Shown: positions 8,737 through 51,683, counted from the first letter of the stretch. The stretch is 55,719 bases of DNA from an uncultured Verrucomicrobiota bacterium (GCA_903844265.1 CAIMTB010000301.1:1-55719); one strand, 5' to 3'. Made by a program: numbers and translations. Notes: a model not told the origin generated them from the letters alone.

Positions 8737-8912
8737 GGTGCTGGGGGGGCCGACTCTTCCGACGGAAGCAGAAATGGGGGGTGGCGGCAAGGACGGGGAT
8801 GCAGGACGGGGCATGCCAGAAACCAAGCAAAGGGACAGGTCTTTCATTGAGATGGCCGCCTTGAGGTTCTCCGAATGCTTGTCTCGGGGCTGGGGCCCGC
8901 GGATAACGGGGG

Positions 8913-9272
8913 ATGCGATATGTCATCGCGGCGTTGATTGGTTTGGTGAGTGGGGTGGCCAGCGGCCTTTTTGGCGTGGGCGGTGGCCTGATCATGGTGC
9001 CTGGCATGGCGGTGCTGATGAAGACGGACATCAAGATTGCGGTGGGAACGTCGTTGGCGGTGATCGTGCCGACGGCGATCACGGGCATGATCAAGCATTC
9101 CCAACTGCGCCAGATCGACTGGCATCTCGTGGCGATGCTTGCGCCGACGGCGATCCTGGGCGGGTTCATTGGGCCGTGGCTGACCACGAAGCTGTCCTCG
9201 ACCGAGTTGCAACGCCTGTTCGGCGGGTTCGTGGTGCTTGTTGGAGTGCGCCTGCTGGTGGCGGCGAAATAG
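8913..9272 (+). CDS. Half-size TSUP (TauE/SafE) family membrane protein
   Basis: 119 aa with 4 predicted TM segments. Family-typical GVGGGLIMVPGM and GTSLAVIVPTA motifs. Confidence 0.7.
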   Translation: MRYVIAALIGLVSGVASGLFGVGGGLIMVPGMAVLMKTDIKIAVGTSLAVIVPTAITGMIKHSQLRQIDWHLVAMLAPTAILGGFIGPWLTTKLSSTELQRLFGGFVVLVGVRLLVAAK

Positions 9273-9298
9273 GGGCGTCGGGAATTCAACGCGATTCC

Positions 9299-10567
9299 AT
9301 GCAACCGTTCGCATTGTGGGTACTCGGGCTCATCGTGGTTCGATGGGCGGCGCAGGTCGGGCTCGAATGGCTGAACCGCCGTCATGTCGTCGCGCACTCG
9401 GGGGCGGTGCCGCCGGCATTCCGCGAAACGATGGACGTGTCGACCTACGCGAGGGCGGTTGACTACACGCTGGCCCGGAACCGCTTCGCGACCCTCGAAC
9501 TGACCTGGGGCACGGTGGTTCTCCTGGGAGTGCTGTTCTCGGGAGTCCTGCCGCGCGTCTGGCAGGCCTGGGCGGATCTCGCCGGGACTTCGGCGTGGGC
9601 GATGGCGTCGGGATTGTTCCTGATCGGCGTGGGATTGTCGTTGCCGGGATTGCCGCTCGACGTGTGGGAGCAGTTCCGACTCGAGCAGCGGTTTGGGTTC
9701 AACACGACGACTCCGGGCACGTGGGTTCTCGATCGTCTGAAATCCTTGGTGCTTGGGGCGCTGCTCGGGATTCCCCTGTTGGCGCTGCTGGTGGCGTTGG
9801 TGAAGTGGACCGGTTCGGCGTGGTGGCTGTGGGGGTGGGGTGCGCTTTTCGCCTTCCAGTGTGTGATGCTGGTCGTGGCGCCTGTCGTGATCATGCCGTT
9901 GTTCAACAAGTTCACGCCGCTTCCTGAGGGAACGCTCCGTTCCCGATTGCTGGCGTTGGCGGAACGCACCGGCTTCCTGGCGCGCGCCATCGAGGTGATG
10001 GACGGCAGCCGACGATCACGGCACGCGAATGCCTTTTTCACGGGACTCGGGCGATTCCGGAAGATCGTCCTGTTCGACACGCTGATCAGCCAGTTGTCCG
10101 AGCCGGAACTTGAGGCGGTGCTGGCCCACGAGATCGGGCATTACCGCTTGCGGCATGTGCCGAAGCTTGTGGCCTGGTCGGCGGTGATGACTTTTGCCGG
10201 GTTTGCGGTGATTGCGTGGATTGCGGGCCAGTCGTGGTTCTTTGCGGCGTTCGGGTTTGGCGCGACGTCGGTCCCGGTGGCGTTGCTGCTGTTTGCGCTG
10301 GTGTCCGATGCGGTGACGTTCTGGTTCTCGCCGCTGAGCCATGTGCTGTCGCGGAAGTTCGAGTATCAGGCCGATGCCTTTGCCTCTGCCGCGGTGGGCG
10401 AGGCCGGATCGCTCATCGCCGCCCTGCGAAAGCTCCACGAGAAAAATCTCTCGAACCTCACCCCGCACCCGCTCTACAGCGGCTTCCACTATTCACACCC
10501 GACATTGCTCGAGCGCGAGGCAGCGCTCCGCAGAGTCCCGCTCAGTCGACTTCCACCACCGCCTTGA
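9299..10567 (+). CDS. M48-family zinc metalloprotease (Ste24/CAAX-prenyl-protease-like)
   Basis: ORF 8612..10567 trimmed to ATG 9299 (MQPFALWVLG...). The extension overlaps the TSUP gene in another frame. Multi-TM N-terminus, HEIGHYRLRH (HExxH) motif, downstream EYQADAF. Confidence 0.85.
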   Translation: MQPFALWVLGLIVVRWAAQVGLEWLNRRHVVAHSGAVPPAFRETMDVSTYARAVDYTLARNRFATLELTWGTVVLLGVLFSGVLPRVWQAWADLAGTSAWAMASGLFLIGVGLSLPGLPLDVWEQFRLEQRFGFNTTTPGTWVLDRLKSLVLGALLGIPLLALLVALVKWTGSAWWLWGWGALFAFQCVMLVVAPVVIMPLFNKFTPLPEGTLRSRLLALAERTGFLARAIEVMDGSRRSRHANAFFTGLGRFRKIVLFDTLISQLSEPELEAVLAHEIGHYRLRHVPKLVAWSAVMTFAGFAVIAWIAGQSWFFAAFGFGATSVPVALLLFALVSDAVTFWFSPLSHVLSRKFEYQADAFASAAVGEAGSLIAALRKLHEKNLSNLTPHPLYSGFHYSHPTLLEREAALRRVPLSRLPPPP

Positions 10568-11570
10568 TCACGCCGGTTTCGGGGCGTGCAAAGACGGGCA
10601 GGTCCTGGCCGAGCCGGTCGAAGTTGGTGCGATGCGTGATCCATGGACGTGTGTCGATGCGGCCTTCCTCAATGAGCCCAATGATGCGGGTGAAGTCGTC
10701 GGGCAGCGCGTTGCGCGAGGCGAGCAGGGTGAGCTCGCGGCGATGCAGCACGGGCGCGTGTGGGAATGAAAGTTCAGCCTGGGTGATTCCGACGTAGACC
10801 ACGCGTCCGCCAAACGCGGTCAACTCGAGGCACCGGCTCATCGAGCGGTTGCTTCCGGTGGCGTCGATGACGGCGTGCGCGAGTTCGCCATTCGTCAGGT
10901 CGCTCAAGGCGCCGAGACCGCCGTCTTCGCCGGTCGCAAGAATCGTGTGCTGGATGCCCATGGCGCGCCGGCAGAATTCGAGGCGCGATTCAACGAGGTC
11001 CACCACCACCAACCGCGCCCCGGTGAGTCTGACGAATTCGATCACAGACAGGCCGATGGGTCCCGCGCCGAGCACGAGCACGGTTTCCCGGGAATCGGGG
11101 TTCGCGCGATTCACCGCGTGGCATCCGATGGCGAGGGTCTCGACGAGCGCGAGTTGTTCAGGCGCGAGACGGGTCGAGGGATGCAGCTTGCGGGCGGGGA
11201 CGATGAACCTGGGACGGAGGCCGCCGTCGGTGTGGACCCCGAGCACCTTCAGGTTCTCGCAGCAGTTGGTCCGGCCGCGGCGACAGGCGGAACACGACTG
11301 GCAGTTGATGTAGGGTTCGACGGAACATCGGTTTCCGGCGGCCACATTCGTGACGCCGTCGCCGACAGCGAGCACCTCAACGCCCAGTTCGTGCCCCGGA
11401 ATCCTCGGGTAGGAAAAGAACGGCATCTTGCCCATCCACCCCGAGTAATCGGTCCCGCAGATTCCGACGCGATGGACGCGCACGAGGGCATCGCCGGGCC
11501 CGGGAGCCTGGGGCTCGGGGAGGTCGAGCAAACGGAGCGTCAGGGGTTTCTCGAACTGGATCGCGCGCAT
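10542..11570 (-). CDS. Zinc-binding medium-chain dehydrogenase/reductase (threonine/sorbitol dehydrogenase-like)
   Basis: GICGTDYS...GHELGVEV catalytic-zinc motif. Structural-zinc Cys cluster CQSCSACRRGRTNCC. GAGPIGL Rossmann motif. Confidence 0.85.
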   Translation of the reverse strand: MRAIQFEKPLTLRLLDLPEPQAPGPGDALVRVHRVGICGTDYSGWMGKMPFFSYPRIPGHELGVEVLAVGDGVTNVAAGNRCSVEPYINCQSCSACRRGRTNCCENLKVLGVHTDGGLRPRFIVPARKLHPSTRLAPEQLALVETLAIGCHAVNRANPDSRETVLVLGAGPIGLSVIEFVRLTGARLVVVDLVESRLEFCRRAMGIQHTILATGEDGGLGALSDLTNGELAHAVIDATGSNRSMSRCLELTAFGGRVVYVGITQAELSFPHAPVLHRRELTLLASRNALPDDFTRIIGLIEEGRIDTRPWITHRTNFDRLGQDLPVFARPETGVIKAVVEVD

Positions 11571-11611: not shown

Positions 11612-12970
11612 TCAGCGTTTGGCCTGGGGGATCGGCTTCGGATTCTTCAGGTCAGGAGGCGGGTTGAACACCCATTCACCGTTGTGAAACTGCGCGGTTG
11701 AGATGGGGACGATGTTATCCCAGCGGCCGTCGAAGATCATGTGACCTGTGACGCCATCCCATTCGTCGAGCGACGCGAGATAATCGCGGACTCGATAGCG
11801 ATTCGGGCCCACCTGGCGGATGGCCTCGATCATGAGGCGCGCCCCGTCGTAGCCATACGCGGCGTAGACATCGGGTTTTTCGCCGTAACGCCGTTCGAAG
11901 CGGCGGACGAAATCGACCCAGGGGCTGTCGGTGCGGCCGGGATTGGAGAAGTAGGTGATGGTGGTGCCCTCGGCTGCGGAGCCGGCTGTCTTCTTGAAGC
12001 CATCCTCCTTGAGCCGGTCGAAGCCGAAGAACTGTGCCTTCACGCCCTCGGTGCGGAGCCTGGCCGCGAGGCGGCCGATGTCCTCGGGTTGTCCGTAGAA
12101 CACGACGGCATCGACGTTGGCGGCCTTGATGCCCTCGATCTGGGTGTCCACGTCGGCCGCGCCGGGCCTGTAGTTGAAGTGCTGGACCGGCGGATGCCCG
12201 AGACGACGGATGTAGTTCGCGAAGTGCATCACGCCAACGCGTCCGGGCCGGCTGTCCTCGCGTAGGATGGCGACCCTCTCGCAACCGCGCTCGCGCATGG
12301 CCAGCAGCGCGAGGCGGAAACATTGCTGCCGGTCGTCGGGAAACACCCGCGTCAGCCACGGGATCTGTGTCTCGGTCAATGTCGGATCGGGATCCGACGT
12401 GTTGATCATGTACGTCTCGATCTTGAGCGCCACACGAAGGGCGACGTGTGTGGCGTCACCGTCAATGGTGCCGAGGAATCCGAGCACGTCCTCGTCCTTG
12501 AATTCCACGGCGATGTTGGCCGCGCTCCCCCACTGCGGGGAGTCCTCCTTGTAGACCAGCTCGAACGGGAGTTGGTCGGGGCGCCGGGCCTTCTCCGCCT
12601 CGATGAAGGCGAGTTCGATCCCCTTCTTGGTCCGCTCGCCCCGCGGGCCTTCCGGGCCCTTGCGGTTGGGGCTCAGCAGACCGACACGGAGGGTTTTCAG
12701 ACCCTTGGGATCGGGGTAGGCGGCGCCCGGCCCGCGGAATGGGAGCCGGGTGGTCCAGTAGCGGAAGTAAGGTTCGATGCCGCGGAACGGGATGAGTTCC
12801 TCGGGCGTGTTGGCGTAGTAGGGATACGCCCGCTCCGCAGGCGCGGAGTTGTCGGCGATGAGGCCGGATGGATCGGGCGTGACGGAGTTCGTCGGAGCGC
12901 CTCCCATCGACACGGGACAAGCGAGAACCGCGGCGAGGGAAGCTAGAATTGCAATCGCAAGCTTTGGCAT
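11612..12970 (-). CDS. Periplasmic solute-binding lipoprotein, LivK/Peripla_BP_6-like (orphan, no adjacent permease)
   Basis: Signal peptide with lipobox AVLAC. Type-1 periplasmic binding fold features across 452 aa. Confidence 0.75.
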   Translation of the reverse strand: MPKLAIAILASLAAVLACPVSMGGAPTNSVTPDPSGLIADNSAPAERAYPYYANTPEELIPFRGIEPYFRYWTTRLPFRGPGAAYPDPKGLKTLRVGLLSPNRKGPEGPRGERTKKGIELAFIEAEKARRPDQLPFELVYKEDSPQWGSAANIAVEFKDEDVLGFLGTIDGDATHVALRVALKIETYMINTSDPDPTLTETQIPWLTRVFPDDRQQCFRLALLAMRERGCERVAILREDSRPGRVGVMHFANYIRRLGHPPVQHFNYRPGAADVDTQIEGIKAANVDAVVFYGQPEDIGRLAARLRTEGVKAQFFGFDRLKEDGFKKTAGSAAEGTTITYFSNPGRTDSPWVDFVRRFERRYGEKPDVYAAYGYDGARLMIEAIRQVGPNRYRVRDYLASLDEWDGVTGHMIFDGRWDNIVPISTAQFHNGEWVFNPPPDLKNPKPIPQAKR

Positions 12971-13018
12971 CGCGTGGACGGCTGGAGATGGGTGTCGGCG
13001 TGGGCGGAGCTCAGGATC

Positions 13019-13573
13019 TCACGAGGGCTGGAGGAGCATCGCGATGGCCTCGATTTCGACGAGCAGATCGCTTCGGCAGATGCGGGCCTGAATGGCGGTG
13101 CTGGCAGGAAACGGATCCAGTCCCAGCGCGCGGAAGAACTCGTTCCGGACGTCGTTGAACTCGTCGTAGTCGCGTTCGATGTCGCGGATGTAGCACGTGG
13201 TGCGGACGATGTCCTTCCAGGTGGCGCCCTCGGCCTCGAGCAGTCGGGTGATGTTGAGGTAGGTGCGCCAGAGTTGTGCCCGGAAGTCGCCGGGATGCAG
13301 CGTCTCGCCATTTTCGCCGACGCTGGCGGTGCCGCTGATGAGCAGTTGGGTGACGCCGCCGGGCAGTTCGAGGCGGAGGCCGCGGCTGAAGGCGCTGCCG
13401 TACTCGGGAGCCTCGTTGAGCACACTGGGGGCGCAGATCGCCGTCATCCGGACGACAGGGCGTGACCCGGTGTCGGGCTTGAGGATGCCGGCGGGCGCGG
13501 GTTCGCAGTGCGGAAGGCCCATGGCGCGGCGTTCGAGTTTCTCGGCGTTGGAATAGTTCACGGCAGGTTCCAT
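13019..13573 (-). CDS. RidA/YjgF/TdcF-family (Rid) protein with N-terminal extension
   Basis: C-terminal 130 aa look Rid-like (ISGTASV..., TTCYIRDIERDYDEFNDV, ASTAIQARICRSDLLVEIEAIAM). Start ambiguous: ATG 13573 or ATG 13621. Confidence 0.65.
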   Translation of the reverse strand: MEPAVNYSNAEKLERRAMGLPHCEPAPAGILKPDTGSRPVVRMTAICAPSVLNEAPEYGSAFSRGLRLELPGGVTQLLISGTASVGENGETLHPGDFRAQLWRTYLNITRLLEAEGATWKDIVRTTCYIRDIERDYDEFNDVRNEFFRALGLDPFPASTAIQARICRSDLLVEIEAIAMLLQPS

Positions 13574-13681
13574 GGTAATGTCTGTGTCAGTCGAGAGAGT
13601 GGCGGGAGCCGCAGGATGCATGGCTTCGGTGTCCCTCGGGGATTAAGTTTGGTCGAGTGTTTAGGGGTGAAAGACTGAAGG

Positions 13682-14854
13682 TCAGGGATTCGACGCGGGC
13701 GTGACGCCGGGGCCCTTCGCGAGGATTCCCCGGCTGAGTCCGTCGGCTGTGGCGATCCACGCTTCGGTGTCGTCGGTCCAGATGCCGAGGACGAATCCGT
13801 TGACCAGCGAGGTGGTCATGGTGCGGTGCTCGACAGGTACGCCGGGCCGATGGATGTCGACGAGGCCCTGACCTTTTTCCCCGGGCAGATAGTTGACCCA
13901 GGTGTCGCCGTCCGTGACGGACAGGCCTTTGTCGGTGCCAATCCAGGCGGCGCGATTCCGGGCCCAGACGAATTGGGCGAAGTTCGAGGGCAACGGGGAT
14001 TTGCCTTCGACCCACGTCTTCCACTTGCTGCCGTCGTATCGCGAGCAGCCGAAGTAGGTGGTCTGCCAGAGGACGCCGTCGTCGATGGCGATCCAGGACG
14101 TGACGTCGTTGATCGGGCCGTCGTCTGGGACGAGGTCATAATGGAAATCGCCGTCGGGGTCGCGGTATTCCTTGAAGGTACCGCGGGCCGGGTCGTGCTC
14201 GACGATGCCACCGCCCCAGACGCCGATGTAGACGCGGTCATTGGCGCCCTTGACGGAATAGCACCAGGGCTCGTGCATGGCGGCGTTCTTGTGGTCGTAG
14301 ATGGCCCATTCGCCGGACCTGAGGTTGAGATCGCCGGTGCCTGCGGCGGTCGCGGCCCAGACGTGGTTGCTGTACACGTCGACGCCGTAGACCACGTTGT
14401 TGGGGAGGCCGCTGTCGGTCTGGAGGTAGCCGGTGATGCGACCGGCGGAGAAACGGTTGAGGCCGCGCATGGTGCCGATCCAGATGTCGCCGGTCCGTGT
14501 GTCCTCGGCGAGACAGAGGACCATCTTCTGGGTGAGGCCGTCGGCGGTGGTGTACCGCTTGAATTTGTTGCCCTCGCGGACGAGCAGGCCCTCCCAGGTG
14601 CCGACCCAGAGCCGGCCGTCGGAGGCCTTCAGGACGCAATGGACCTTGTGGCCCAGGAGTCCGTCGGCCTCGCCCAGGTTCTCGAATCTCTCGATGAGCG
14701 GAAACGGGAGCGGCGCAGGAATCGCGGCGTCGGCTGCAGCCGTTCGGGGCGTCGGGGCGAGCAAGAACAGCATCGCGAGTGCACGGAGAGGCGCGCGGCC
14801 CGCCCGGGCCACGGTGTCGCGAAGAAATGCGGGCAAGATAGGCGACGGGTTCAC
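13682..14854 (-). CDS. Secreted Reg_prop-type (two-component-regulator propeller) beta-propeller protein
   Basis: ORF 13682..15358 trimmed to GTG 14852-14854, which overlaps the upstream stop as GTGA (alternative ATG 14773). Seven W[IV]GT..GL-type blades (LWVGTWEGLLV, IWIGTMRGLNRF, VYIGVWGGGIV, AWIGTDKGLSV, AWIATADGLSRG). Confidence 0.65.
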   Translation of the reverse strand: MNPSPILPAFLRDTVARAGRAPLRALAMLFLLAPTPRTAAADAAIPAPLPFPLIERFENLGEADGLLGHKVHCVLKASDGRLWVGTWEGLLVREGNKFKRYTTADGLTQKMVLCLAEDTRTGDIWIGTMRGLNRFSAGRITGYLQTDSGLPNNVVYGVDVYSNHVWAATAAGTGDLNLRSGEWAIYDHKNAAMHEPWCYSVKGANDRVYIGVWGGGIVEHDPARGTFKEYRDPDGDFHYDLVPDDGPINDVTSWIAIDDGVLWQTTYFGCSRYDGSKWKTWVEGKSPLPSNFAQFVWARNRAAWIGTDKGLSVTDGDTWVNYLPGEKGQGLVDIHRPGVPVEHRTMTTSLVNGFVLGIWTDDTEAWIATADGLSRGILAKGPGVTPASNP

Positions 14855-16917
14855 AGCGTCTTCAGGTATTCCACGAGTTCGTTGAGCTGTTGTTTGGACA
14901 TGTAACTGCTCACGCCGTGGAGGTCGTTGGTTTGGTAGAGGGTCCAGAGTTCCTCGAGGCTCTTGGCGCGGCCGTCGTGCAGATACGGCGCGGAAGCCGC
15001 AATGCCAAGGAGATGGGGCGTGTCGAATTCGTCGGTCGAATCCTGGGGTGCGCGGGTTCCGACCGAGGCCTTGGCGCGATTGGTGTACAACGGCGGCCGA
15101 TGGCAGGTGGAACAACGGCGCTCGGGCGGGATCGGCTTTCCGTCCGAGGTCTGGACCGCGAAGAAAAGCAGACGCCCGCGTTCGCGGGTCTGGGTCCATT
15201 CGGTGTCCTGGACATGGCGGGTCCTGGGCGGGGGCATCGATTCGACGAAGTGGGTGAGATTGTCGAGCTGCTCGCCGTCGAAGGGGTCGGTGCGCATGAG
15301 AACCTTGGCGAAGCGCGGGCCGCACTGGACCTTGAGGCTGGGGTTCTTGCCGCTCCACTTGAAGGGCCAGGTGCCGGCGACGCCCTGGAGCGAGCGGTTG
15401 TCGAGGAGGTTGTCACCGATGCCATCGCCGTCGAAGTCGTAGTTCAGACCGTCGACGTGTCCGTCCGGGTGGCAGGAGCGGCACGAGAACTGGCCTTGGA
15501 ATGTCTTTCCCGCCCAGGTGAACAGGCGTTCGCCTCGCCGGATGGGGTCCGATTCGCCGCCGTCGCCGAGGACGACGCGACCCACCGCGGCGAGGTTCGT
15601 GGTGTTGATGACGAGGATCGAATCCTGGAGACGCTCGGCGATGAAGAGACGTGAGCCGTCGGGGGAGAGCGCGAGTTGGCGTGGGTTGCGCCGGGTGGGA
15701 ATGCGGGCGGCGACATACTGTGACGACAATTCGAGGTCGTGGATCGCGGTGCGCTTGGCGGCGTCGTCGGATTGGGCGAGCCAGTTCGCGAGGCGATCGA
15801 GGTCGATCACGCTCACGGTGTCGCCGCCTCCGGAGGCGAGGTAGGCGCGATGTCCCTCGGGATCCACGACCAGCCCGGCCGGGTCCGCGAAGTATCGGTT
15901 CGCCTCGTCGATGGGGACCTGGACGACGTTGTTACCCTCGGTGTCCGTGATGGCGAGGCCGCTCGTCATGACCCAGCCGCGAGCGACCTGGGTGATGGGG
16001 ACGAGGTTGCGGACGCGGACCATCGCGGTGAGCACCCAGGATCGTGAGGGGACGGGGACGGTGGCCTCGGAGAGATGGGCGGATATCAGGCGTGGGCGGG
16101 CGAGGACGCGTTGCCTGCCGGGATCAATGACGGTGAGTTCGGATGCGGGCGGGCGATCGATGCCCGGCATTTCAGCGAGGCGGGCGGAGACGTAGGCACG
16201 GGAGCCGTCGCTCGAGACGCCGACCCCGTAAGGCTCGCGTCCGGTGGTGAGGCGGACGGTCTCCTGGAGCGGCGCGGTCCTCAGGATCGAAGCGTCGTCG
16301 GAGATGGTGTTGGCGACGACCAGTTGGATTCCATTCGTGGTCTTGAGGCACCCGATTCCGACCGGGGCGATGCCGACGAAGGCGGATTCGGCTTCGGTGA
16401 AAGGGTCGAGGTCAAGGCGCGCCACGCGATCGCCGGAGCGGCAGGTGACGAAGAGGGAGGAGCCGTCAGGATGAAGGGCCAGTCCGGTGGGCTCGCCGGC
16501 GACGTGGGCGCGGCGGAGGACACGGAGGGTGTCGATCTTCACCTCGGCAATTTCGTCGAGTTCGGGCAGGGCGACGTAGAGGCGGGAGTTGTCGCGTGTG
16601 ACGACGAGCCCGGCGGGCGAGGGATGGCGTGGGTGGGGCTTGGCCCAGGGCAGTGCGTTGGTGGTTTCGCCGTGGCAATTCCGGCAACTGACATTGGAGA
16701 TGTCCTGCATCCCTGACTTCTCGCGGACGTGGTCGATGTCGCGCTTGGGCAATCCGAGTCCGGCCATGCCAATGACGTCGAGGACACGGATGCGCGTGGT
16801 ACGTCGGAATTTGAGCGGCGTGCTTCGCCAGGCCATCGCGACAACAATGGCGACCACCGCGAGGCCAATGGCCGCGGTGATCAGGGGTGTTCGGAGTCGC
16901 TTTCCCCGTCGGTTCAT
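14851..16917 (-). CDS. Membrane-anchored tri-haem protein: CXXCH + YVTN-like beta-propeller + di-haem cytochrome c peroxidase/MauG-like domain
   Basis: N-terminal TM helix. CRNCH (16672-16686), CRSCH (15469-15483), CSTCH (15100-15114). CCP-type motif FDTPHLLGIAASAPYLHDGRAKSLEEL. Propeller blades (SRLYVALPE, GSSLFVTCRSGDRV, GSRAYVSA, GHRAYLASGGGDTVSVIDL, GSRLFIAERLQDSILVI). Confidence 0.8.
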   Translation of the reverse strand: MNRRGKRLRTPLITAAIGLAVVAIVVAMAWRSTPLKFRRTTRIRVLDVIGMAGLGLPKRDIDHVREKSGMQDISNVSCRNCHGETTNALPWAKPHPRHPSPAGLVVTRDNSRLYVALPELDEIAEVKIDTLRVLRRAHVAGEPTGLALHPDGSSLFVTCRSGDRVARLDLDPFTEAESAFVGIAPVGIGCLKTTNGIQLVVANTISDDASILRTAPLQETVRLTTGREPYGVGVSSDGSRAYVSARLAEMPGIDRPPASELTVIDPGRQRVLARPRLISAHLSEATVPVPSRSWVLTAMVRVRNLVPITQVARGWVMTSGLAITDTEGNNVVQVPIDEANRYFADPAGLVVDPEGHRAYLASGGGDTVSVIDLDRLANWLAQSDDAAKRTAIHDLELSSQYVAARIPTRRNPRQLALSPDGSRLFIAERLQDSILVINTTNLAAVGRVVLGDGGESDPIRRGERLFTWAGKTFQGQFSCRSCHPDGHVDGLNYDFDGDGIGDNLLDNRSLQGVAGTWPFKWSGKNPSLKVQCGPRFAKVLMRTDPFDGEQLDNLTHFVESMPPPRTRHVQDTEWTQTRERGRLLFFAVQTSDGKPIPPERRCSTCHRPPLYTNRAKASVGTRAPQDSTDEFDTPHLLGIAASAPYLHDGRAKSLEELWTLYQTNDLHGVSSYMSKQQLNELVEYLKTL

Positions 16918-18470
16918 GGGCTTTGCGTGAGGTCCGATCGCGCGGGTAGGAGTTTGACCGGCGGTTCGCGGACCGCGAGGGGCCGATTGTTTTCAGGGGC
17001 GCGATTGTGCGGCTCGTGACAGCCCACGCAGGAGCGGTTCTCACCGGGACGCAGCCAGAATGCAGGGGGACAGCGGCGCAGGATGTTGCGGTCGGCGTCG
17101 AGGAGTTCGATCGCCAGGGGGAGGTCGGCGGGGACCATGGCCATTGCCGAGCCGTCGGATTGCAATCGGACTTCACCGAGGATCCGGGGCACGTTGGGGG
17201 TGGGCCCGCCATAGGCGACGACGCGGAGATGGGTGCCGCGGTTCGTGGGATTGTTGGGTCCTTGAACCGGTCGATCGGAAAGGTGGGCGTCGAGGCACAG
17301 CAGGGTGGCATCGGTGCGCGTGGGATCGACATTCGACAGCCGGCCCAGGGGTCGGACCGGTCGGGTAGCCGAGATGGCCTCCACTTCGTTGCGCGTCGGA
17401 TCGTCGAAGACCGGCGTGCCCAGTCGCACGGTGCCTGCCGAGAGCCTGTAGACCGCGAAAGTCGCGAGCACGCGGTCCGGCCCCGTCTCCCGGAGGGTTG
17501 CGAGGAAGTTTCCGTCGTCGGTGGGCTCCACAGCCCGGCAGGGTGCGGCGATTTGAGGGAATGCGACCGAGCGGCTGCGGTAGGGTCGTGCAGCGAGGAC
17601 CTGCTCGATCCGGCCCTGCAGTGCGGGTCCGCCGGCGCCTGAGGACAGGAAAAGGATGCGCCCGTCGCGGGTTTCGCGAGGCCGACGGGTTGCGGTGGGG
17701 CCATCGTGCTGGCCGGCGTAGGGCGTGATCTCGGTGCCGTCGTTGTTGATCGTGAAGAGCGACGTGGCCGCCGGGGCTGAGCCCTCGGCTGTCGGGACAC
17801 CCGACACGAACAGAATCCGGCCATCGGCAAGCACCGTCGGGTCGGTCGCCGCAACCAGACCGTGGGTCAGTCGCGCCGGCGGTCCTCCGGTGATCGACTG
17901 CGTGAACAGTGCGGGGACGGCGGGCGCGGGGTGTGCGGCCGTGGCGGATCGTGGCACCGGCGAGCTGTAGACGAAGCGGCCGTTCGGCAGCCACGACGCC
18001 GCCATCGCGCCGCCCGGCTGCGACGTCAGCGGCTTCGGGATGCCACCCGCAAGTCCTGCCCGATACACCTGCCAAGCCTGGCTCATCTCGGCTTTCCCGG
18101 CGAAGAGCACGTCGCGCCCGTCGGGTCCGAGCACCGGTCCGCCCGCGGCTCGCAGTCCCTGAGAGAGGACGATCACGCGATCAGGGCGATCTGGCTGGGG
18201 GACCAGAACCACACGACTACCGGCGGGATAAAGAAGATCGAGCGCGTCGCCGGGATTTTCGTGAACGCCGGCTTCGATGGGCGTCTGCGTGACGATCAAC
18301 GACGCATCGGAAACCGCGGGCCGGGCAGGACCGCAAGCGGTCGATAACACGAGCGCAACAGCCAGAAAGGCCGGTCCGAGGATGCGCGCCTGCCTTCGCG
18401 ACGGGACGCGTCCCGCGGGCTGCCAGGCGGGCCCGTTCAGGGCGCCGCGATGTCCGAGGGCGGCCTTCAT
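16914..18470 (-). CDS. Lipoprotein with PD40/TolB-like beta-propeller and C-terminal mono-haem module (HzsA-related-like)
   Basis: Lipobox LSTAC. PD40-like repeats (PDGRDVLFAG, LPNGRFVYSS, LADGRILFVSG, TRDGRILFLSS). C-terminal ...VPADLPLAIELLDADRNILRR...WLRPGENRSCVGCHE (CXXCH at 17016-17030). ATGA overlaps at both ends. Confidence 0.65.
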   Translation of the reverse strand: MKAALGHRGALNGPAWQPAGRVPSRRQARILGPAFLAVALVLSTACGPARPAVSDASLIVTQTPIEAGVHENPGDALDLLYPAGSRVVLVPQPDRPDRVIVLSQGLRAAGGPVLGPDGRDVLFAGKAEMSQAWQVYRAGLAGGIPKPLTSQPGGAMAASWLPNGRFVYSSPVPRSATAAHPAPAVPALFTQSITGGPPARLTHGLVAATDPTVLADGRILFVSGVPTAEGSAPAATSLFTINNDGTEITPYAGQHDGPTATRRPRETRDGRILFLSSGAGGPALQGRIEQVLAARPYRSRSVAFPQIAAPCRAVEPTDDGNFLATLRETGPDRVLATFAVYRLSAGTVRLGTPVFDDPTRNEVEAISATRPVRPLGRLSNVDPTRTDATLLCLDAHLSDRPVQGPNNPTNRGTHLRVVAYGGPTPNVPRILGEVRLQSDGSAMAMVPADLPLAIELLDADRNILRRCPPAFWLRPGENRSCVGCHEPHNRAPENNRPLAVREPPVKLLPARSDLTQSP

Positions 18471-20239
18471 CGGGCGGATCCGGGCTCCTGAATTCTCAGG
18501 ATGCGATCGACGGTGAGGTTTTCCAGTTTCTGGACCTGGCCGCTTGGCCAGCGAATTTCGAGAAGGTCCACCTTCGAGGCCGCGCCCAGCCCGATATGCA
18601 CGCGCGGGTCGCCCTGCATCAGGAAAGTCGTGGAAGCCCGGGCGAGATGGAGCGTGGTCTTGCCCCCGGCTGTGACGTGAAGAATGGCGCCGAATCCGTC
18701 GCGATTGCTGCGGGTTCCCTCAAGATGGAGCGTGAGCCAGTGGTGGCCTGAGGTGGATCGGTTGTGAAGCAGGTAGGGACGATCCGCGATGGCCGTCATC
18801 AGGAGATCGGGACGGCCGTCATTGTCGAAGTCGAGGACCGCGGCGCCGCGGCCGCGAAGTTTCGATCGGAAAACGGCGCCGCCCTGGACTGCCGCGTCCG
18901 TGAAGGTCCCGCCGCCGCGGTTCTCAAGCAGCAAGCTTTGCCAGCCGACGAGATAATGGGCGTCGCCATTGGCGATGAAGATATCCTCGTCACGATCGTT
19001 GTCGAAATCGAAGAACACCCCACCCCACGCCACGTATTGGGCGGTGATGGCTCCGAGTCCCGAGACCACCATGGCGTCGGTGAAGACGCCGTTGGTGGTG
19101 CCGAGATAGAGCGAGCCATACCCGAATCGGGTCACGAGAATGTCCGGCCGACCGTCACCGTTCGAGTCGCCGATCGCCGCGCCCATCGAGCCGGCAGCTT
19201 CGCCGAGGGCATTGAACGCCACGCCGCGCTTCTGCCCCGACTCGGTGAAGTGGCCGTGGCCGTCGTTCATCAGGAGCAGGTTCGGCGAGAGATCGTTCGA
19301 GATGTACAGGTCCTGGTGCCCGTCAAGATCGGCGTCGAACGCAGTCACACACATCGCGCGATGGCCCGCGACCCGGATGCCCGACTTCTCGCTCACGTCC
19401 TCGAATGTTCCGTCGCCTCGATTCCGGTAGAGCACGTTCGCCTCCGGCTTGTACGCCAGCGCGCTTGGAAATCCATCCGGTTGGAAGTAGAGGCGGTACG
19501 TGGGATCGAACGTAAGGTAGTTCGCCAGAAAAAGATCAAGATGGCCGTCGTTGTCGAAGTCGGCGAACACCGCCCCAATACCGGTCCCCTTGTGGCCTAC
19601 GCCGGCACGGACAGTGACGTCCTCGAATGTTCCGTTGCCTCTGTTTCGGAACAGGTGGCTCTCGCCGACGCTGACCACGTAGAGGTCCGTGAAACCGTCG
19701 TTGTCAAAGTCGCCCGCCGCAGCCGTGACGCCATAACCGGAGCCCGTGAGACCGGCCTTGGCTGTGACGTCCTCGAACGTGCCGTCACCACGGTTTCGGA
19801 AGAGGCCGTTCGGGCGGCGCGCAGTTCCCGGGAGGTGGTGGGTCACGCCGTCGAGCGGACCCGAGTTGACAAGGAATATATCCATCCACCCGTCGCGGTC
19901 GAAGTCCAGAATGGCTCCTCCGGCTCCGTTCGATTCGATGATGTTCCCGATGTGGTCGTCGCAGAGCTGTTGGACAAATCGCAGCCCGGCACGGCCACTG
20001 ACATCCTCGAAAACATCCGATGCTCCGGCCACGATGGGGGCGGAACCCTCCGTGGGCGCCGAGTTGGTGGGAGGAACTCCCTTGAGGCCGACGCTCCTGT
20101 CTCCACCGCCACCGAGATCGGTCGAAATCGGACCGCAGCCCGTGAGGCACGCGATCGCGGCCGCGCCCAGCCAAGCCCGAAGGCTTTCGCGAAAAAGGCG
20201 CTGCCTGATCTGACGACTGTCTGACCGCGATGGGTCCAT
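18467..20239 (-). CDS. CRTAC1-family lipoprotein (FG-GAP/VCBS repeats + ASPIC/UnbV C-terminal domain)
   Basis: Lipobox CLTGC. Seven DFDxDGxxD[IL]-type FG-GAP repeats (DFDRDGWMDIFLVN, DFDNDGFTDLYVV, DFDNDGHLDLFLAN, ...). C-terminal ...NRDGFGAILHVTAGG...LLEIRWPSGQVQ. Confidence 0.8.
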   Translation of the reverse strand: MDPSRSDSRQIRQRLFRESLRAWLGAAAIACLTGCGPISTDLGGGGDRSVGLKGVPPTNSAPTEGSAPIVAGASDVFEDVSGRAGLRFVQQLCDDHIGNIIESNGAGGAILDFDRDGWMDIFLVNSGPLDGVTHHLPGTARRPNGLFRNRGDGTFEDVTAKAGLTGSGYGVTAAAGDFDNDGFTDLYVVSVGESHLFRNRGNGTFEDVTVRAGVGHKGTGIGAVFADFDNDGHLDLFLANYLTFDPTYRLYFQPDGFPSALAYKPEANVLYRNRGDGTFEDVSEKSGIRVAGHRAMCVTAFDADLDGHQDLYISNDLSPNLLLMNDGHGHFTESGQKRGVAFNALGEAAGSMGAAIGDSNGDGRPDILVTRFGYGSLYLGTTNGVFTDAMVVSGLGAITAQYVAWGGVFFDFDNDRDEDIFIANGDAHYLVGWQSLLLENRGGGTFTDAAVQGGAVFRSKLRGRGAAVLDFDNDGRPDLLMTAIADRPYLLHNRSTSGHHWLTLHLEGTRSNRDGFGAILHVTAGGKTTLHLARASTTFLMQGDPRVHIGLGAASKVDLLEIRWPSGQVQKLENLTVDRILRIQEPGSAR

Positions 20240-20662: not shown

Positions 20663-21142
20663 TCAGCCGCGGAACACCACCATCACGCCGTAGTCGGTGA
20701 CATAATGCTCTGTGGCGAGATCCTTATACGTGTAGGTGATGGGGGTGATGCTGATGACGTACTGCTGGCCCACCTTCTGAAGGAACGCGGAGACCACCTC
20801 GTCGAAGTGATCCTTGTTCACCGTCATGGTATCCACGCGACGGAACGTCTGGATCCGTATCTTCTTGTCGAGTTCCTTGGCCGCGAATTCAAGCGTAGGC
20901 GTGGTCTTGGTAATGAGGTGCTCGGCGGGACCCTCGTGAAGCGGCACCACGAAGTGCTTTTCCTCCCGGCTCGCGTCCGTCGTAGCTGGCTGGCCGTGGG
21001 GCGCGGCCCGGATCCTGGTGATATCAGGGGACGGCACCGTCATCTTGCGATTGCAGGCCGGACAATCCACCGCGGAGCCGACCGCGGTGATGTCGACCTC
21101 GAGTTCCTGTTTGCAGTTGGGGCAGTTGAAGGTGAAGTCCAT
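20663..21142 (-). CDS. Zinc-ribbon protein with uncharacterised C-terminal domain
   Basis: ORF 20663..21406 trimmed to ATG 21142 (MDFTFNCPNCKQ...; alternative ATG 21175). CPNC...CPAC four-Cys ribbon, then a roughly 100-aa mixed alpha/beta-looking domain. Confidence 0.6.
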   Translation of the reverse strand: MDFTFNCPNCKQELEVDITAVGSAVDCPACNRKMTVPSPDITRIRAAPHGQPATTDASREEKHFVVPLHEGPAEHLITKTTPTLEFAAKELDKKIRIQTFRRVDTMTVNKDHFDEVVSAFLQKVGQQYVISITPITYTYKDLATEHYVTDYGVMVVFRG

Positions 21143-21347
21143 AGCTTTGCGCACTCCAGGCTGTCTTTCTTCCATAGCCTTGGCGCATGCAGAAGCACAG
21201 ACAAAACACGGGAGATGGCATCCAGGCGGGGTGGAACAGGTTGAGCTCGCAGGTCGCGGAGGACGAAAAGGGGCCTGCCCTCGAGGCGTCCGACGTTCAA
21301 CCGTTGTCGTCGACCAAATCGGCCGCCCGGGGTACGATGGGGCCCCG

Positions 21348-22280
21348 ATGAGCAAGACTGCGCTGCTGTTTGCCGGACAAGGCGCCCAGACCGTGGGCAT
21401 GGGCAAGGATTTCGCGGGGCAGTTTCCGGCTGCGCGCGAATTGTTCGGGCGCGCCGACAGCGCGCTTGGCTACCCGCTTTCCCATCTGTGCTTCGAGGGG
21501 CCCGAGGCGGAACTTACCCGCACCGAAAACGCACAGCCGGCCATTTTCCTCATGGGCTGGGTGGCCTTCGAGCTGCTCCGTCAAGAGGTCCATGGGTTGC
21601 GTTTTGAAGCCACGGCGGGTTTGTCTCTCGGAGAATTCACGGCCCTTGCCGCGGCGGGTGCGATGAGTTTCGAGGATGGCCTGCGCATCACACGGCTTCG
21701 CGGTCGGTTCATGCAGGAGGCGTGCGAGGCGACGCGCGGTTCGATGGCGGCGATCATCAACCTTGACGAGGGTCCCACCCGCGACGTATGCGCCGAGGCT
21801 GGTGTGGAATTGGCGAATCTGAATTGTCCGGGACAGCTCGTGATCTCAGGGGAGGCCACTGCGATCGCGAAAGCTTGCGAGCTCGCCAAAGCCCGCGGTG
21901 CGAAACGAGCCCTGCCGCTCGCGGTTGCCGGCGCCTACCATTCCCGGCTCATGGGGAGCGCCCAGGCGAAGCTCGCCGCCGAACTCTCCGGCGCCACCGT
22001 GATTTCGCCGTCTGTTACGGTGGTCTCGAATGTCACGGCCCGCCCGCACGAGGACCCCACCTCGATCAAGGACCTGCTTGTGCAACAGGTCTGCGCCCCC
22101 GTCCGCTGGGAAGCCTCGATCCGCTGGCTTTTGGAACAAGGATACACCCGCTTCATTGAGCTGGGACCCGGACGCGCCCTGGCCGGCTTCATGAAGCGCA
22201 TCGCGCCGGAGGTTCTCACGCTTAGCGTCGGGGATGTTCCCACGCTGCAAGCCGCAGTGGCGGTGCTTCAAACTCGATGA
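21348..22280 (+). CDS. fabD: Malonyl-CoA:ACP transacylase
   Basis: ORF 21018..22280 trimmed to ATG 21348 (MSKTALLFAGQGAQTVGMG). Active-site GLSLGEF. 310 aa. Confidence 0.9.
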   Translation: MSKTALLFAGQGAQTVGMGKDFAGQFPAARELFGRADSALGYPLSHLCFEGPEAELTRTENAQPAIFLMGWVAFELLRQEVHGLRFEATAGLSLGEFTALAAAGAMSFEDGLRITRLRGRFMQEACEATRGSMAAIINLDEGPTRDVCAEAGVELANLNCPGQLVISGEATAIAKACELAKARGAKRALPLAVAGAYHSRLMGSAQAKLAAELSGATVISPSVTVVSNVTARPHEDPTSIKDLLVQQVCAPVRWEASIRWLLEQGYTRFIELGPGRALAGFMKRIAPEVLTLSVGDVPTLQAAVAVLQTR

Positions 22281-23553: not shown

Positions 23554-25995
23554 CTAGCGACTGCGCAGTGAGACGGTGACCGTCACGGGGCGCGTCGTGG
23601 TGACGGCGCCAGAGTTGTCGGTGATTTTCGCCGTGATGGCGTAGGTTCCCGAGCGGACGCGGCTCCAATTGAACACGTACAGGCCACCGGGCACGCGGTT
23701 GCTGTCACCCTCGTCCTCGCGACGGATCTGTTGTCCAAGTCCGATGGAGGTGTCTCCGACGAAGAACTCCACGGAAGCGACGGTGCCATCCGAATCCGAG
23801 GCGAAGGCCACGATCGGGATTGTGGAGTTCACGGGGAAGCGGGCGCCATCGGTCGGTCGGAGGATGCGTCCCGTGGGGAGTTGGTTGGCGGGCGGGGTCA
23901 CCGGCTCGCTTATAGTCACGACGGCCTGGTGCTTCTCGCCGAGCCGATAAGGAGTCGCTCCATCCGGCGCCTCGTCGAGCTCGAGTTTGACCGTGTCCCT
24001 GCCGTTCTCCGGCGAGTCGTTGTCCGCGATGGGGACGACCGTGATGTCGGCGAAGAGCTGGCCGGCGGGGAGGGTCACCGATTCCGGAAGCAACTGGTAG
24101 TCCTGGCCGTTCTTGGCACTGCCGCCGAGGCTGAAGTAGACCACGAGACTGGCGTTGACATCACCGCCGGTTCGGCTGATCCGGAAGGTCCCCGGGTCGA
24201 GGTTCTCCTCAGAGGCCGTGGGGTCGGGGCTGGTCACGCTGACGGTTGCCTTGCCGGTCACCGGAGGCGGCGTCACGACGTTGGTCACCAGGATGCTTAC
24301 CCGGCTCGACAGATAGACCTTGCCTGCCGCGTCGGTGGCTTCGGCCTGGTAGGAATACTCGCCTGCGCGGAGGCCCTTGATGTCGGTGGAGTAGGGAGGC
24401 GCGGTGAAGGTCGCCACCACGGTGCGTCCCTGGAAGAGCCGGACCTGTTTGGCAGCGCCATCGGGAGTTACCGCCGCGCTCAGTGCGAAGGACGCGGGAG
24501 CGGGATAGGAGGCGCCGCGGGCCGGGCTGGTCAGGGCGATCGTCAGCGGTGTCGGGGGCGGCGGCGTCGTGGTGACCACGAGGTCGGCGGCGTGACTGGT
24601 GGCGGAACCCACCGAGTTGACAGCCGTGACGGAGTAGCTTCCCGCGTCGGCTGTCGTGACCCGTGCCAGAGTGAGTGACTCACTGGTCGCTCCATTGATG
24701 AGTGTCGTTCCCTTCACCCACTGATAGGAGAAAGGCGCCGTACCCGAGACTCCGACGGTGAAGGTGACCGAGGCTCCTTCCAGGACCGTCTGGCTCGCGG
24801 GCTGCCGGGTAATGGACGGTGCGGTATCAGGCGGCGGCGGCGTCGAGGTGACGGTGAGATGTGCGATCGTGCTGCTCACGCCCGCAACCAGGTTGCTGAT
24901 TGTGACCGAATAATCGCCGGCGTTGGCGGGAGTCGCATGGGCGATGGTGAAAGTGGCGGCGTTTGCGCCTGTGATCGGCGTGGTTCCATTCAACCATTGA
25001 TAGGAAAGCGGAGCGGTGCCGGTGGCGACGACGGTGAACGTGGCAGGGTTTCCTTCGAGGACCGTCTGGCTCGCGGGCTGTTGCGTGATGGTCGGTGCGA
25101 TGCTGGGCGGCAGGACAGTAACACTGAGCTGCGCGGCGGTGCTGGTGACGGAGCCGACGGTGTTACCGACCGTGACCGAATAATTGCCGGCGTTTGCGGG
25201 AGCAACATGGGCGATGGTGAAAGTGGCGGCGTTCGCGCCTGTGATGGGCGTGGTTCCATTCAACCATTGATAGGAAAGCGGAGCGGTGCCGGTGGCGACG
25301 ACGGTGAAGGTGGCAGGGTTTCCTTCGAGGACCGTCTGGCTCGCGGGCTGTTGCGTGATGGTCGGTGCGATGCTGGGCGGCAGGACAGTAACACTGAGCT
25401 GCGCGGCGGTGCTGGTGACGGATCCGGCGGTGTTACCGACTGTAACCGAGTAACTGCCGGCGTCGGCGGGAGTAGCATGGGCGATGGTGAAAGTGGCGGC
25501 GTTCGCGCCTGTGATGGGCGTGACTCCACTCAGCCATTGATACGAGAGAGGCGCTGTGCCCGCGGCGACGACGGTGAAGGTGGCGGGGCTTCCCTCAAGG
25601 ACGGTCTGGTTCACGGGCTGTTGCGTGATCGTCGGCGGGGTGGGAGGCGGTGCCGGATGTGAAGCCGGATCGCTGGGGTTGGTGGGAGTGCCAGCGGGAT
25701 TGGGATCTCCCCGCAGCCATGCACCCAGCGGGTCACCAAGTTCCACGCCGTTGGAGAAGCCGTCCCCATCCGAATCCATGGCGGCGAGGGTGGCATTCCA
25801 GGCATGATTGTTCCTGGTGAAGGCAGAGCCGAAGGGTTTCAGGGGCGGACCGGTTGCGCCGTGGCACATCGTGCAACCGAGCACGGTGCCGTTGGGAACC
25901 ATCGTTTCGAACACGTTCAGTGCCGAGGCGGATCTTACTGCCAGCAGCAGAGTCAGAAGTAGGGCGATTCGAGTCAGTAGGGGTCTCATGGTCAT
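23554..25995 (-). CDS. Secreted multidomain protein: CXXCH motif + thrombospondin-type-3-like Ca loop + 4 Ig (I-set-like) repeats + Ig-like domain + Calx-beta + Ig-like domain
   Basis: Signal peptide. CTMCH (25861-25875). DSDGDGFSNGVELGD. Four 90-aa repeats (...QTVLEGxPATFTV...YQWLxG...DAGxYSVTV...). Calx-beta-like segment (...YFSLGGSAKNGQDYQLL...ADITVVPIADND). Confidence 0.85.
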   Translation of the reverse strand: MTMRPLLTRIALLLTLLLAVRSASALNVFETMVPNGTVLGCTMCHGATGPPLKPFGSAFTRNNHAWNATLAAMDSDGDGFSNGVELGDPLGAWLRGDPNPAGTPTNPSDPASHPAPPPTPPTITQQPVNQTVLEGSPATFTVVAAGTAPLSYQWLSGVTPITGANAATFTIAHATPADAGSYSVTVGNTAGSVTSTAAQLSVTVLPPSIAPTITQQPASQTVLEGNPATFTVVATGTAPLSYQWLNGTTPITGANAATFTIAHVAPANAGNYSVTVGNTVGSVTSTAAQLSVTVLPPSIAPTITQQPASQTVLEGNPATFTVVATGTAPLSYQWLNGTTPITGANAATFTIAHATPANAGDYSVTISNLVAGVSSTIAHLTVTSTPPPPDTAPSITRQPASQTVLEGASVTFTVGVSGTAPFSYQWVKGTTLINGATSESLTLARVTTADAGSYSVTAVNSVGSATSHAADLVVTTTPPPPTPLTIALTSPARGASYPAPASFALSAAVTPDGAAKQVRLFQGRTVVATFTAPPYSTDIKGLRAGEYSYQAEATDAAGKVYLSSRVSILVTNVVTPPPVTGKATVSVTSPDPTASEENLDPGTFRISRTGGDVNASLVVYFSLGGSAKNGQDYQLLPESVTLPAGQLFADITVVPIADNDSPENGRDTVKLELDEAPDGATPYRLGEKHQAVVTISEPVTPPANQLPTGRILRPTDGARFPVNSTIPIVAFASDSDGTVASVEFFVGDTSIGLGQQIRREDEGDSNRVPGGLYVFNWSRVRSGTYAITAKITDNSGAVTTTRPVTVTVSLRSR
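24556..25635 (-). repeat. In-frame 270-bp tandem repeat array (4 units) encoding the Ig-like repeats
   Basis: CAACCATTGATAGGAAAGCG recurs at 24991 and 25261. Units 24931-25200 and 25201-25470 differ at only about a dozen positions. The flanking units are more diverged. Confidence 0.85.
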
Positions 25996-51657: not shown

Positions 51658-51683
51658 CAGTCCCGGCGATTCACGCCTGTCCG

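Follow-up and report, generated by a model that had tools for sequence, protein, structure and literature searches.

Whether genes resembling those of anammox hydrazine synthase (HZS) specify the synthesis of hydrazine or some other reaction is a question raised by a cluster on the minus strand of a 55,719-nt stretch of DNA from an uncultured Verrucomicrobiota bacterium (GCA_903844265.1, CAIMTB010000301.1:1-55719), hereafter referred to as the window. HZS was long thought to be without relatives, and its homologues offer the only view of that enzyme's evolution. An earlier reading of the window (the sequence-only reading) had pointed to four genes encoding an extracytoplasmic, multi-propeller, four-haem complex with the subunit logic of HZS and a different substrate. 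This core proposal is supported by the present analysis, the formation of a complex being something that we infer from the sequences, and we hold with high confidence that the scaffold is HZS-like and, jointly, that the system is not a hydrazine synthase.

As defined by the coordinates and translations of its open reading frames (ORFs), the cluster comprises six co-directional genes, A-B-C-D-E-F, spanning positions 11612-20239 (Table 1). For A to D, these data agree with the sequence-only reading, except that B had been described as ending at ...CVGCHE and runs 33 residues further. The unit had also been closed at 13682, at the end of D; it continues to E and F.

Homologues of the hydrazine synthase subunits

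Gene B encodes a short homologue of the HZS alpha subunit, composed of a six-bladed PD40/TolB-like propeller and an HZS-alpha middle domain with a single c-haem motif. Pfam searches identified HZS_alpha (8e-17) and PD40, and when B was compared with all PDB sequences, chain A of the Kuenenia stuttgartiensis enzyme (PDB 5C2V) was the sole match. Its AlphaFold2 model has a predicted local distance difference test (pLDDT) score of 85.9, and a Foldseek search of the PDB placed 5c2v_A first (E-value 5e-26), ahead of TolB (5e-10). The TM-score was 0.73 relative to the query and 0.50 relative to the target, the B model covering only part of 5c2v_A. B carries a lipobox (...LSTAC) with Cys46 at 18333-18335, a cysteine kept in at least 90% of 111 homologues, and its CXXCH is kept in 74 of 74. 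Among protein clusters formed at 50% identity, B has 260 relatives with E <= 1e-30 and 1063 with E <= 1e-10, and one homologue has been named 'HzsA-related protein' by NCBI.

Gene C encodes a fusion of beta- and gamma-type subunits. Behind its N-terminal membrane anchor, which gives the strongest N-terminal hydropathy among the six proteins, C contains an extra haem motif, a seven-bladed YVTN propeller with a conserved loop, and a two-haem domain of the peroxidase/MauG type. Its Pfam matches were CCP_MauG (1.7e-9; 38.9 bits, above the gathering threshold of 25.6), Lactonase and YNCE; weak MbnH and MauG matches were also seen. Among PDB sequences, C matched 5c2v_B (8.8e-29) and 5c2v_C (5.8e-13), and a family profile built from 120 homologues extended these matches to 1.8e-45, over the full length of 5c2v_B, and to 2.5e-22 for 5c2v_C. 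The AlphaFold2 model (overall pLDDT 83.7) retrieved 5c2v_B as the top fold (E-value 2e-26, TM-score relative to the target 0.89, root-mean-square deviation 2.7).

Because PDB sequence, profile and Foldseek matches all lead to the chains of 5C2V, B is an alpha-type subunit and C a beta-gamma fusion. With HzsA, HzsB and HzsC of K. stuttgartiensis the two proteins have in common the alpha propeller with its c-haem middle domain, the seven-bladed beta propeller with its inserted loop, and the two-haem, peroxidase-like gamma domain. A third cysteine at the gamma-I haem also appears to be shared, Cys532 of C aligning with Cys165 of gamma. The HZS subunit logic that had been proposed is therefore borne out, chains A, B and C of 5C2V being the best or only sequence matches and chains A and B the top folds. 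The families anticipated for the four genes were likewise all found by Pfam, namely HZS_alpha, PD40, CCP_MauG, lactonase/YVTN, Reg_prop, FG-GAP and UnbV_ASPIC.

Table 1. Genes, junctions and motifs of the cluster (positions in the window)
Feature	Position	Strand	Remarks
Gene A, CRTAC1-type lipoprotein	18467-20239	-	590 aa; six FG-GAP_3 repeats and UnbV_ASPIC
A/B stop/start overlap ATGA	18467-18470	-	kept in 11/13 related loci
Gene B, short HZS-alpha homologue, lipoprotein	16914-18470	-	518 aa
B c-haem motif CVGCH	17016-17030	-	only CXXCH in B
B/C stop/start overlap ATGA	16914-16917	-	kept in 17/18 related loci
Gene C, HZS beta-gamma fusion homologue	14851-16917	-	688 aa
C N-terminal membrane anchor, hydrophobic helix PLITAAIGLAVVAIVVAMAW	16828-16887	-	residues 11-30
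C extra N-terminal haem motif CRNCH	16672-16686	-	kept in 87/89 homologues
C conserved beta loop NLVPITQVARGWVM	15967-16008	-	in YVTN seven-bladed propeller
C gamma-I haem motif CRSCH	15469-15483	-	kept in 89/89
C Trp521	15355-15357	-	kept in 89/89
C third cysteine Cys532	15322-15324	-	aligns with gamma Cys165
C Phe536	15310-15312	-	aligns with gamma Asp168
C gamma-II haem motif CSTCH	15100-15114	-	kept in 89/89
C His647	14977-14979	-	kept in 89/89
C/D stop/start overlap GTGA	14851-14854	-	sequence read
Gene D, secreted single Reg_prop beta-propeller	13682-14854	-	390 aa; GTG start
Gene E, Rid/YjgF-family protein	13019-13621	-	200 aa; Pfam Ribonuc_L-PSP 3e-19
Gene F, exported LivK-type (Peripla_BP_6) solute-binding protein	11612-12970	-	452 aa; Pfam 2e-36

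Departures from hydrazine synthase

Likeness to HZS does not extend to the catalytic residues of that enzyme. The equivalog cut-offs of NCBIfam are undershot by a factor of 9 to 20, with B scoring 40.7 bits against 800 for hydrazine_alpha and C scoring 115.4 against 560 for beta and 62.6 against 625 for gamma. The best NCBIfam match of C is the Scalindua-type fused HzsBC (NF052342), in which beta and gamma form one polypeptide as they do in C; even here, the score (hydrazine_BC, 138.1 bits, E-value 2.8e-40) amounts to about one ninth of the family cut-off of 1250. Gene order also differs, alpha preceding beta-gamma in the cluster and following it in anammox bacteria.

In HZS, haem alpha-I is ligated by Tyr591 while its CXXCH histidine is turned to a zinc site, and the bis-His haem alpha-II lies in a C-terminal cytochrome c domain. 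Gene B ends 33 residues past its CXXCH, and the alpha-II cytochrome c domain is absent. The motif reads CVGCHEPHNR, with no tyrosine four residues downstream and none conserved at that position in 111 homologues. Compared with the Kuenenia enzyme, the cluster lacks the alpha-II domain and Tyr591, and presumably the zinc site; it adds the N-terminal haem, membrane anchor and lipoprotein tethering, and four conserved partners (A, D, E and F), and its neighbourhood is devoid of hydrazine dehydrogenase. Four CXXCH motifs were counted, one in B and three in C, so that the number of haems given in the sequence-only reading stands. These predicted haems are not the four of HZS, since alpha-II is missing and an extra one is located at the N-terminus of C.

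Further differences concern the beta loop and the haem surroundings of the gamma domain. The HZS beta loop (residues 245-260) holds a conserved Mg-binding glutamate, replaced in C by Gln310, a position occupied by Gln in 71, Arg in 11, His in 6 and Glu in 1 of 89 homologues. The loop itself is strongly maintained, with Asn304 and Gly314 invariant and Trp315 present in 87 of 89, and is near-identical from Verrucomicrobiota to Planctomycetota despite about 40% overall identity. Asp168 of gamma, the proposed proton donor for nitric oxide (NO) reduction at gamma-I (PMC12607021), is replaced by Phe536 (Phe in 76 and Leu in 11 of 89), next to an Arg535 common to all 89 homologues. Gamma His144, which sits between the two haems of HZS, is replaced by Trp521. 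The third cysteine, Cys532, is present in all 120 close homologues; among 89 broader relatives from different phyla, 65 have it and 23 have Asp instead. At the electron-transfer haem, the distal ligand is Met in peroxidases, Tyr in MauG and His in HZS gamma-II. In C, a PYLHDG motif offers two candidates for the distal ligand of gamma-II, His647 and Tyr645 (Tyr in 81, Phe in 8). A candidate sixth ligand of the N-terminal haem is residue 98, which is His in 48 and Tyr in 39 of 89. The Cys532/Asp and His98/Tyr splits may mark functional subtypes.

A cryptic anammox bacterium outside the Brocadiia, with a genuine HZS, would account for three recognisable and adjacent subunit types and for the third gamma-I cysteine of C. 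We give this explanation the slightest probability of all those considered. Low NCBIfam scores, the missing tyrosine, zinc site and alpha-II domain, and the replacement of Asp168, His144 and the loop glutamate argue against HZS, as does the 55.7-kb window itself, in which no ORF for hydrazine dehydrogenase, an HAO-like protein or another multi-haem protein was found; outside B and C, three ORFs carry a haem-type motif, one each. The sequence-only reading was correct in stating that nothing else in the window is anammox-like. Moreover, hundreds of genomes belonging to many phyla carry this module, and a recent study (PMC12758564) also concludes against hydrazine synthesis.

The gamma-like domain of C invites a second comparison, with the di-haem cytochrome c peroxidases, MauG and MbnH (PF03150). 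Shared traits are the two C-terminal CXXCH motifs and a tryptophan lying between the haems, and the Pfam score exceeds the cut-off. What sets the domain of C apart is its fusion to a propeller and an extra haem, the third cysteine at its first haem in the clade of the window, and its constant pairing with a haem protein of the HZS-alpha type.

A conserved and widespread module

As the sequence-only reading had stated, A to D are joined by ATGA, ATGA and GTGA stop/start overlaps. Independent gene calls from public contigs with the same proteins (590, 518, 688 and 390 aa) show identical 4-nt overlaps. The A-B-C arrangement is not a product of chance, because the overlaps at A/B and B/C are kept, at the frequencies given in Table 1, in related loci that span two phyla, and these three genes are translationally coupled. 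At the C/D junction, some relatives show the 4-nt overlap, while in most other loci the two genes are 1-19 nt apart. Larger gaps separate D from E (60 nt), E from F (48 nt) and F from an alcohol dehydrogenase gene (41 nt). No Rfam match was found in the 420-nt leader upstream of A or elsewhere in the window, short blastn and shared 9-mers detected no leader motif in common with relatives beyond chance, and promoter and terminator scans gave counts within about 1 standard deviation of the shuffled expectation, and hence say nothing either way.

Conservation of the cluster was examined in two steps. A first scan of species-representative genomes provided 18 loci; a profile scan then revealed more than 455 species-level genomes with a relative of C, of which 80 were kept. 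Synteny was counted over 92 related loci, 58 of them with both flanks. In all 67 loci where this could be scored, both A and B are found upstream of C at a distance of no more than 5 kb, in the order A-B-C in 57 and B-A-C in 10. D is found directly downstream of C in 64 of 65 loci, and F downstream of D in the same proportion (64/65). All four accompany C in 58 of the 58 loci with both flanks, so that the co-occurrence foreseen for A to D extends to F. E is on the same strand in 37 of these 58, at variable positions. Synteny holds down to 37% identity across phyla. The unit consists of six genes here and usually of seven elsewhere, including a Rid protein and one or two orphan LivK-type proteins, most relatives having a second binding-protein paralogue where the window has one.

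With a GC content of 65%, the window has plentiful long spurious ORFs on both strands, and one might suspect that the genes of the cluster are mis-called or mere neighbours. This suspicion, to which we leave hardly any probability, is already refuted by significant family matches for each gene, identical independent calls, cross-phylum synteny and conserved overlaps.

Carriers labelled as Verrucomicrobiota belong to Opitutia, Pedosphaera and Limisphaerales, and others are labelled Planctomycetota, Acidobacteriota, Gemmatimonadota, Bacteroidota, Chlorobiota, Binatia, Desulfurellales and Elusimicrobia. All of them are metagenome-assembled genomes (MAGs), some of whose taxon labels may be wrong. 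The genes flanking the module are unrelated between genomes in the six others examined, and give no hint of a pathway. The module is vertically and horizontally widespread, and self-contained.

Four loci from MAGs labelled Acidobacteria or Thermoanaerobaculia (L040, L048, L064 and L044) have C homologues 57-58% identical to that of the window, as close as those of MAGs labelled Opitutia/Opitutaceae, which suggests recent horizontal transfer or mis-binning. A Tll0287-like gene (PF11845) directly follows the second binding-protein gene in two loci (L023, 16126-16725; L025, 15907-16644) and may be an occasional extra member of the module; its product presumably adopts a haem-binding, PAS-like fold. 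In one lineage, a DUF2249 gene absent from the window lies divergently upstream of the FG-GAP gene (L019, 6180-6470; L020, 66-356). Extra CRTAC1-type FG-GAP/UnbV paralogues flank the module in L023, L030, L032, L082 and others. Some of those in L023 are fused or adjacent to TPR proteins, and one TPR neighbour has a faint cytochrome c554 match.

Relation to previously described homologues

HZS-like genes outside the Brocadiia have been reported before. In Phycisphaerae UBA1845, hzsA-like genes were found just upstream of hzsBC-like fusion genes, and the authors proposed a broad family of HZS-like enzymes acting on other substrates (Dalcin Martins et al. 2023, PMC10732223). An alpha-like gene followed by a fused beta-gamma-like gene is also what the window contains; the UBA1845 MAGs, with their HAO and NXR genes, were considered as potential new anammox bacteria, and nothing of that sort is seen in the window. 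More recently, co-located HZS homologues were sorted into clades I-IV (Hagglund et al. 2025, Genome Biol Evol, PMC12758564). In that paper, clade III has an FG-GAP/CRTAC1 gene upstream of the alpha homologue, which lacks the alpha-II haem and is about 100 residues shorter at its C-terminus, then a fused beta-gamma gene with exactly one extra haem motif, and two genes for ABC (ATP-binding cassette)-type binding proteins downstream, with function unknown. There, clades I-III are described as having lost Tyr591, with a two-residue gap at that position, and the loop glutamate, and as having Trp in place of gamma His144; a third gamma-I cysteine is reported for clade I, and it is concluded that the homologues do not make hydrazine.

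The window shares with clade III its gene layout, alpha truncation, extra haem motif and residue changes, and differs by having one binding-protein gene instead of two. On gene layout and domain features, the cluster is of the clade III type. Its kind was thus already described in late 2025, and the window adds a further member rather than a first sighting, so that the sequence-only reading, which had called the complex uncharacterised, holds for its biochemistry and not for the cluster type. In the literature, we found no biochemical characterisation of these HZS homologues or of bacterial CRTAC1/UnbV proteins. The Reg_prop gene D and the Rid gene E are not mentioned in the sections available, and C combines the clade III layout with a third cysteine, invariant in its 120 close homologues, that is reported for clade I. 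The present additions are an invariant core of five genes to which the Reg_prop propeller belongs, a Rid gene that is variable, the pattern of tethering, conservation of the 4-nt coupling, the phenylalanine at the Asp168 position and the clade dependence of the third cysteine. Their value is that they sharpen the list of parts and the map of residues. That a periplasmic haem machine so constrained and so widespread lacks an assigned reaction is a gap in microbial redox or nitrogen biochemistry, and if a carrier is in culture, its function would be directly testable; possible candidates are Opitutaceae or Planctomycetota such as Aquisphaera and Thermogutta, which PMC12758564 names.

Accessory proteins and their localization

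Export signals of A to F were read from the sequence together with N-terminal hydropathy. The export or anchor signals claimed for the first four genes were all recovered, in the form of lipoboxes for A and B, a hydrophobic helix for C and a signal-peptide-like N-terminus for D. The lipobox of A reads LTGC, with Cys35, at 20135-20146. Its Pfam matches are FG-GAP_3 (2e-55) and UnbV_ASPIC (3e-16), and its only solved relative is human CRTAC1 (PDB 9etn, 1.2e-18).

D most resembles the periplasmic sensor propellers of Bacteroides hybrid two-component systems (PDB 4a2l, 1.7e-28; 3v9f, 3.8e-23). The sequence-only reading had likened the architecture of the cluster to that of HZS; the propellers are indeed present, but the equivalent of beta is contained within C and D is an extra propeller. 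Its candidacy as an HZS-beta equivalent is ruled out by these matches.

E has a conserved N-terminal extension of about 90 aa in the alignment, which is not hydrophobic; because no signal peptide is present, E is presumably cytoplasmic. All its NCBIfam matches fall under the cut-off (TIGR00004, 51.6 bits against 106). In the PDB alignment, it reads 'PAST' where PH0854 reads 'PARV', the arginine of the RidA 'PAR' motif being replaced to give 'PAS'. In RidA, this residue is the carboxylate-binding Arg105. The absence of the arginine rules out a canonical RidA imine deaminase, and E is a member of the Rid superfamily outside canonical RidA.

The N-terminus of F is signal-peptide-like, and its closest solved relatives (PDB 4mlc/4q6b, 1e-22) were deposited as branched-chain amino-acid binding proteins. 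No transporter gene was found near F, and no ABC permease or ATPase adjoins the module in the window or in the other genomes examined. In an alignment with E. coli LivJ, F appears to depart from it at most positions that contact the ligand (conserved Arg, Asp, Asp), which is a lead only that we do not count as evidence.

Proposed working and alternative explanations

The best explanation, which we consider probable though by a modest measure of confidence, is an extracytoplasmic haem-c complex that shares ancestry and subunit layout with HZS and is not HZS. That it performs a peroxidase/MauG-style, two-site oxidoreductase chemistry on the HZS scaffold is a more tentative proposal, to which we give somewhat less than an even chance. 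A and B as lipoproteins, C through its anchor, and D and F as secreted proteins would come together on the periplasmic side of the membrane, B and C taking up the arrangement of alpha and beta-gamma in HZS. The membrane-proximal, N-terminal haem of C would link the complex to the electron-transport chain, electrons entering or leaving there. They would pass to gamma-II, with His606 and the candidate second ligand His647, and through Trp521 to gamma-I, by the route that joins the two haems of cytochrome c peroxidases and MauG. Gamma-I, whose third thioether cysteine is kept in the clade of the window, would be the first reaction centre. Because Phe replaces the proton-donating Asp168, its probable ligand is a small neutral oxidant (H2O2, O2 or NO), and the three-electron, three-proton reduction of NO to hydroxylamine is unlikely there. 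The conserved beta loop might gate a channel toward the haem of B, a putative ordinary His-ligated c-haem, where a second substrate would react. The propellers A and D and the orphan binding proteins are candidate captors of this substrate, which the binding proteins and the Rid protein weakly hint to be a small nitrogen-containing compound.

Several points weigh against this scheme. The assembly of the proteins into one complex is a prediction from the sequences, and electrons could flow in either direction. The gamma-like domain is modelled with low confidence (pLDDT of about 48-69 over residues 480-560 and 610-670), so that statements on the haem pockets derive solely from sequence alignment. 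The third cysteine is not essential to the family, because Asp takes its place in 23 of 89 homologues. E is cytoplasmic, missing from a third of the loci and devoid of the RidA arginine, and its link to the chemistry is weak; a nitrogen-containing ligand of F is a guess. Among the carriers are MAGs labelled Thermoanaerobaculia and Bacteroidales, which are anaerobic lineages, and this is awkward for any O2-dependent chemistry.

The peroxidase-like features of C lend themselves to two other explanations. In the first, C would be a maturase, its MauG-like domain oxidising residues of A, B or D to create a protein-derived cofactor, as MauG does for tryptophan tryptophylquinone and MbnH for MbnP; the finished assembly would act as a dehydrogenase of amines or amino acids that the binding proteins supply, with the Rid protein handling imines. 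Quinohaemoprotein amine dehydrogenase consists of propeller and di-haem subunits, which fits such a scheme, as do the CCP_MauG score above the Pfam cut-off, the weak MbnH and MauG matches, and a LivK-type binding protein and a Rid-family gene within the module. Among the Foldseek matches of C, 1jju_B appears only at rank 41, as a generic propeller. The invariant Trp521 occupies the position of the catalytic tryptophan of peroxidases and MauG, as also noted in PMC12758564. We nevertheless regard a maturase as unlikely. Retention of the whole HZS layout, including the alpha-type haem and the gated loop, points to small-molecule chemistry, and the conservation of the 4-nt coupling speaks for subunits in stoichiometric amounts, not for a maturase acting catalytically. 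The module has no candidate small cofactor subunit and no radical-SAM (S-adenosylmethionine) partner, and E is without the arginine of RidA.

The second explanation reduces the system to a B-C core acting in detoxification, as a tethered peroxidase or an NO-scavenging reductase running on respiratory electrons, with A, D, E and F accessory or unrelated. Peroxidases are common in microaerophiles and anaerobes. A peroxidase-family domain with a tryptophan bridge, a membrane-proximal haem suited to electron uptake from the chain, and a distribution over many phyla and habitats all accord with this role. Yet a simple peroxidase needs neither an alpha-type haem protein nor three ligand-binding proteins, which are nonetheless found in 58 of 58 loci, and the loop that faces the inter-haem channel is under strong constraint. 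We therefore rate detoxification, too, as having only a small chance of being correct.

A last reading keeps closer to the chemistry of HZS and supposes a nitrogen transformation unknown so far, carried out by ordinary heterotrophs of many phyla, in which a relative of hydrazine synthesis forms N-N or N-O bonds. One haem would activate a small N- or O-species, the product would cross the loop-gated channel, and the second haem would join or transfer it to an amine-type substrate that the orphan binding proteins bring in. We consider this a long shot.

Neighbouring genes

The zinc-type alcohol dehydrogenase gene next to F (10542-11570, minus strand) sits where most relatives have their second binding-protein gene. 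None of the 18 related loci compared has this gene, which rules it out as a member of the unit. Upstream of A, beyond the leader of about 420 nt, lies an ORF (20663-21406, minus strand) for which public gene calls point to a product of probably about 160-170 aa. Its similarity to zinc-ribbon/DUF7560 is no more than faint, and the ORF is conserved in the nearest relative (L005) alone. The haem-type motifs outside the cluster are a single CTMCH in an 813-aa exported protein (23554-25995, minus strand), CLECH in an ORF at 25733-26002, and a non-canonical CRDHCH in an ORF at 51399-52547. In the 813-aa protein, the motif belongs to an N-terminal Temptin_C domain, accompanied by four near-identical immunoglobulin I-set repeats, a Calx-beta domain and two Big_7 domains. 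On the plus strand, an M48 (Ste24-type) peptidase ORF (8612-10567) is over-extended at its listed length of 651 aa, public gene calls giving 422 aa. The peptidase and alcohol dehydrogenase genes are convergent, with about 25 nt of overlap at the 3' end of the latter.

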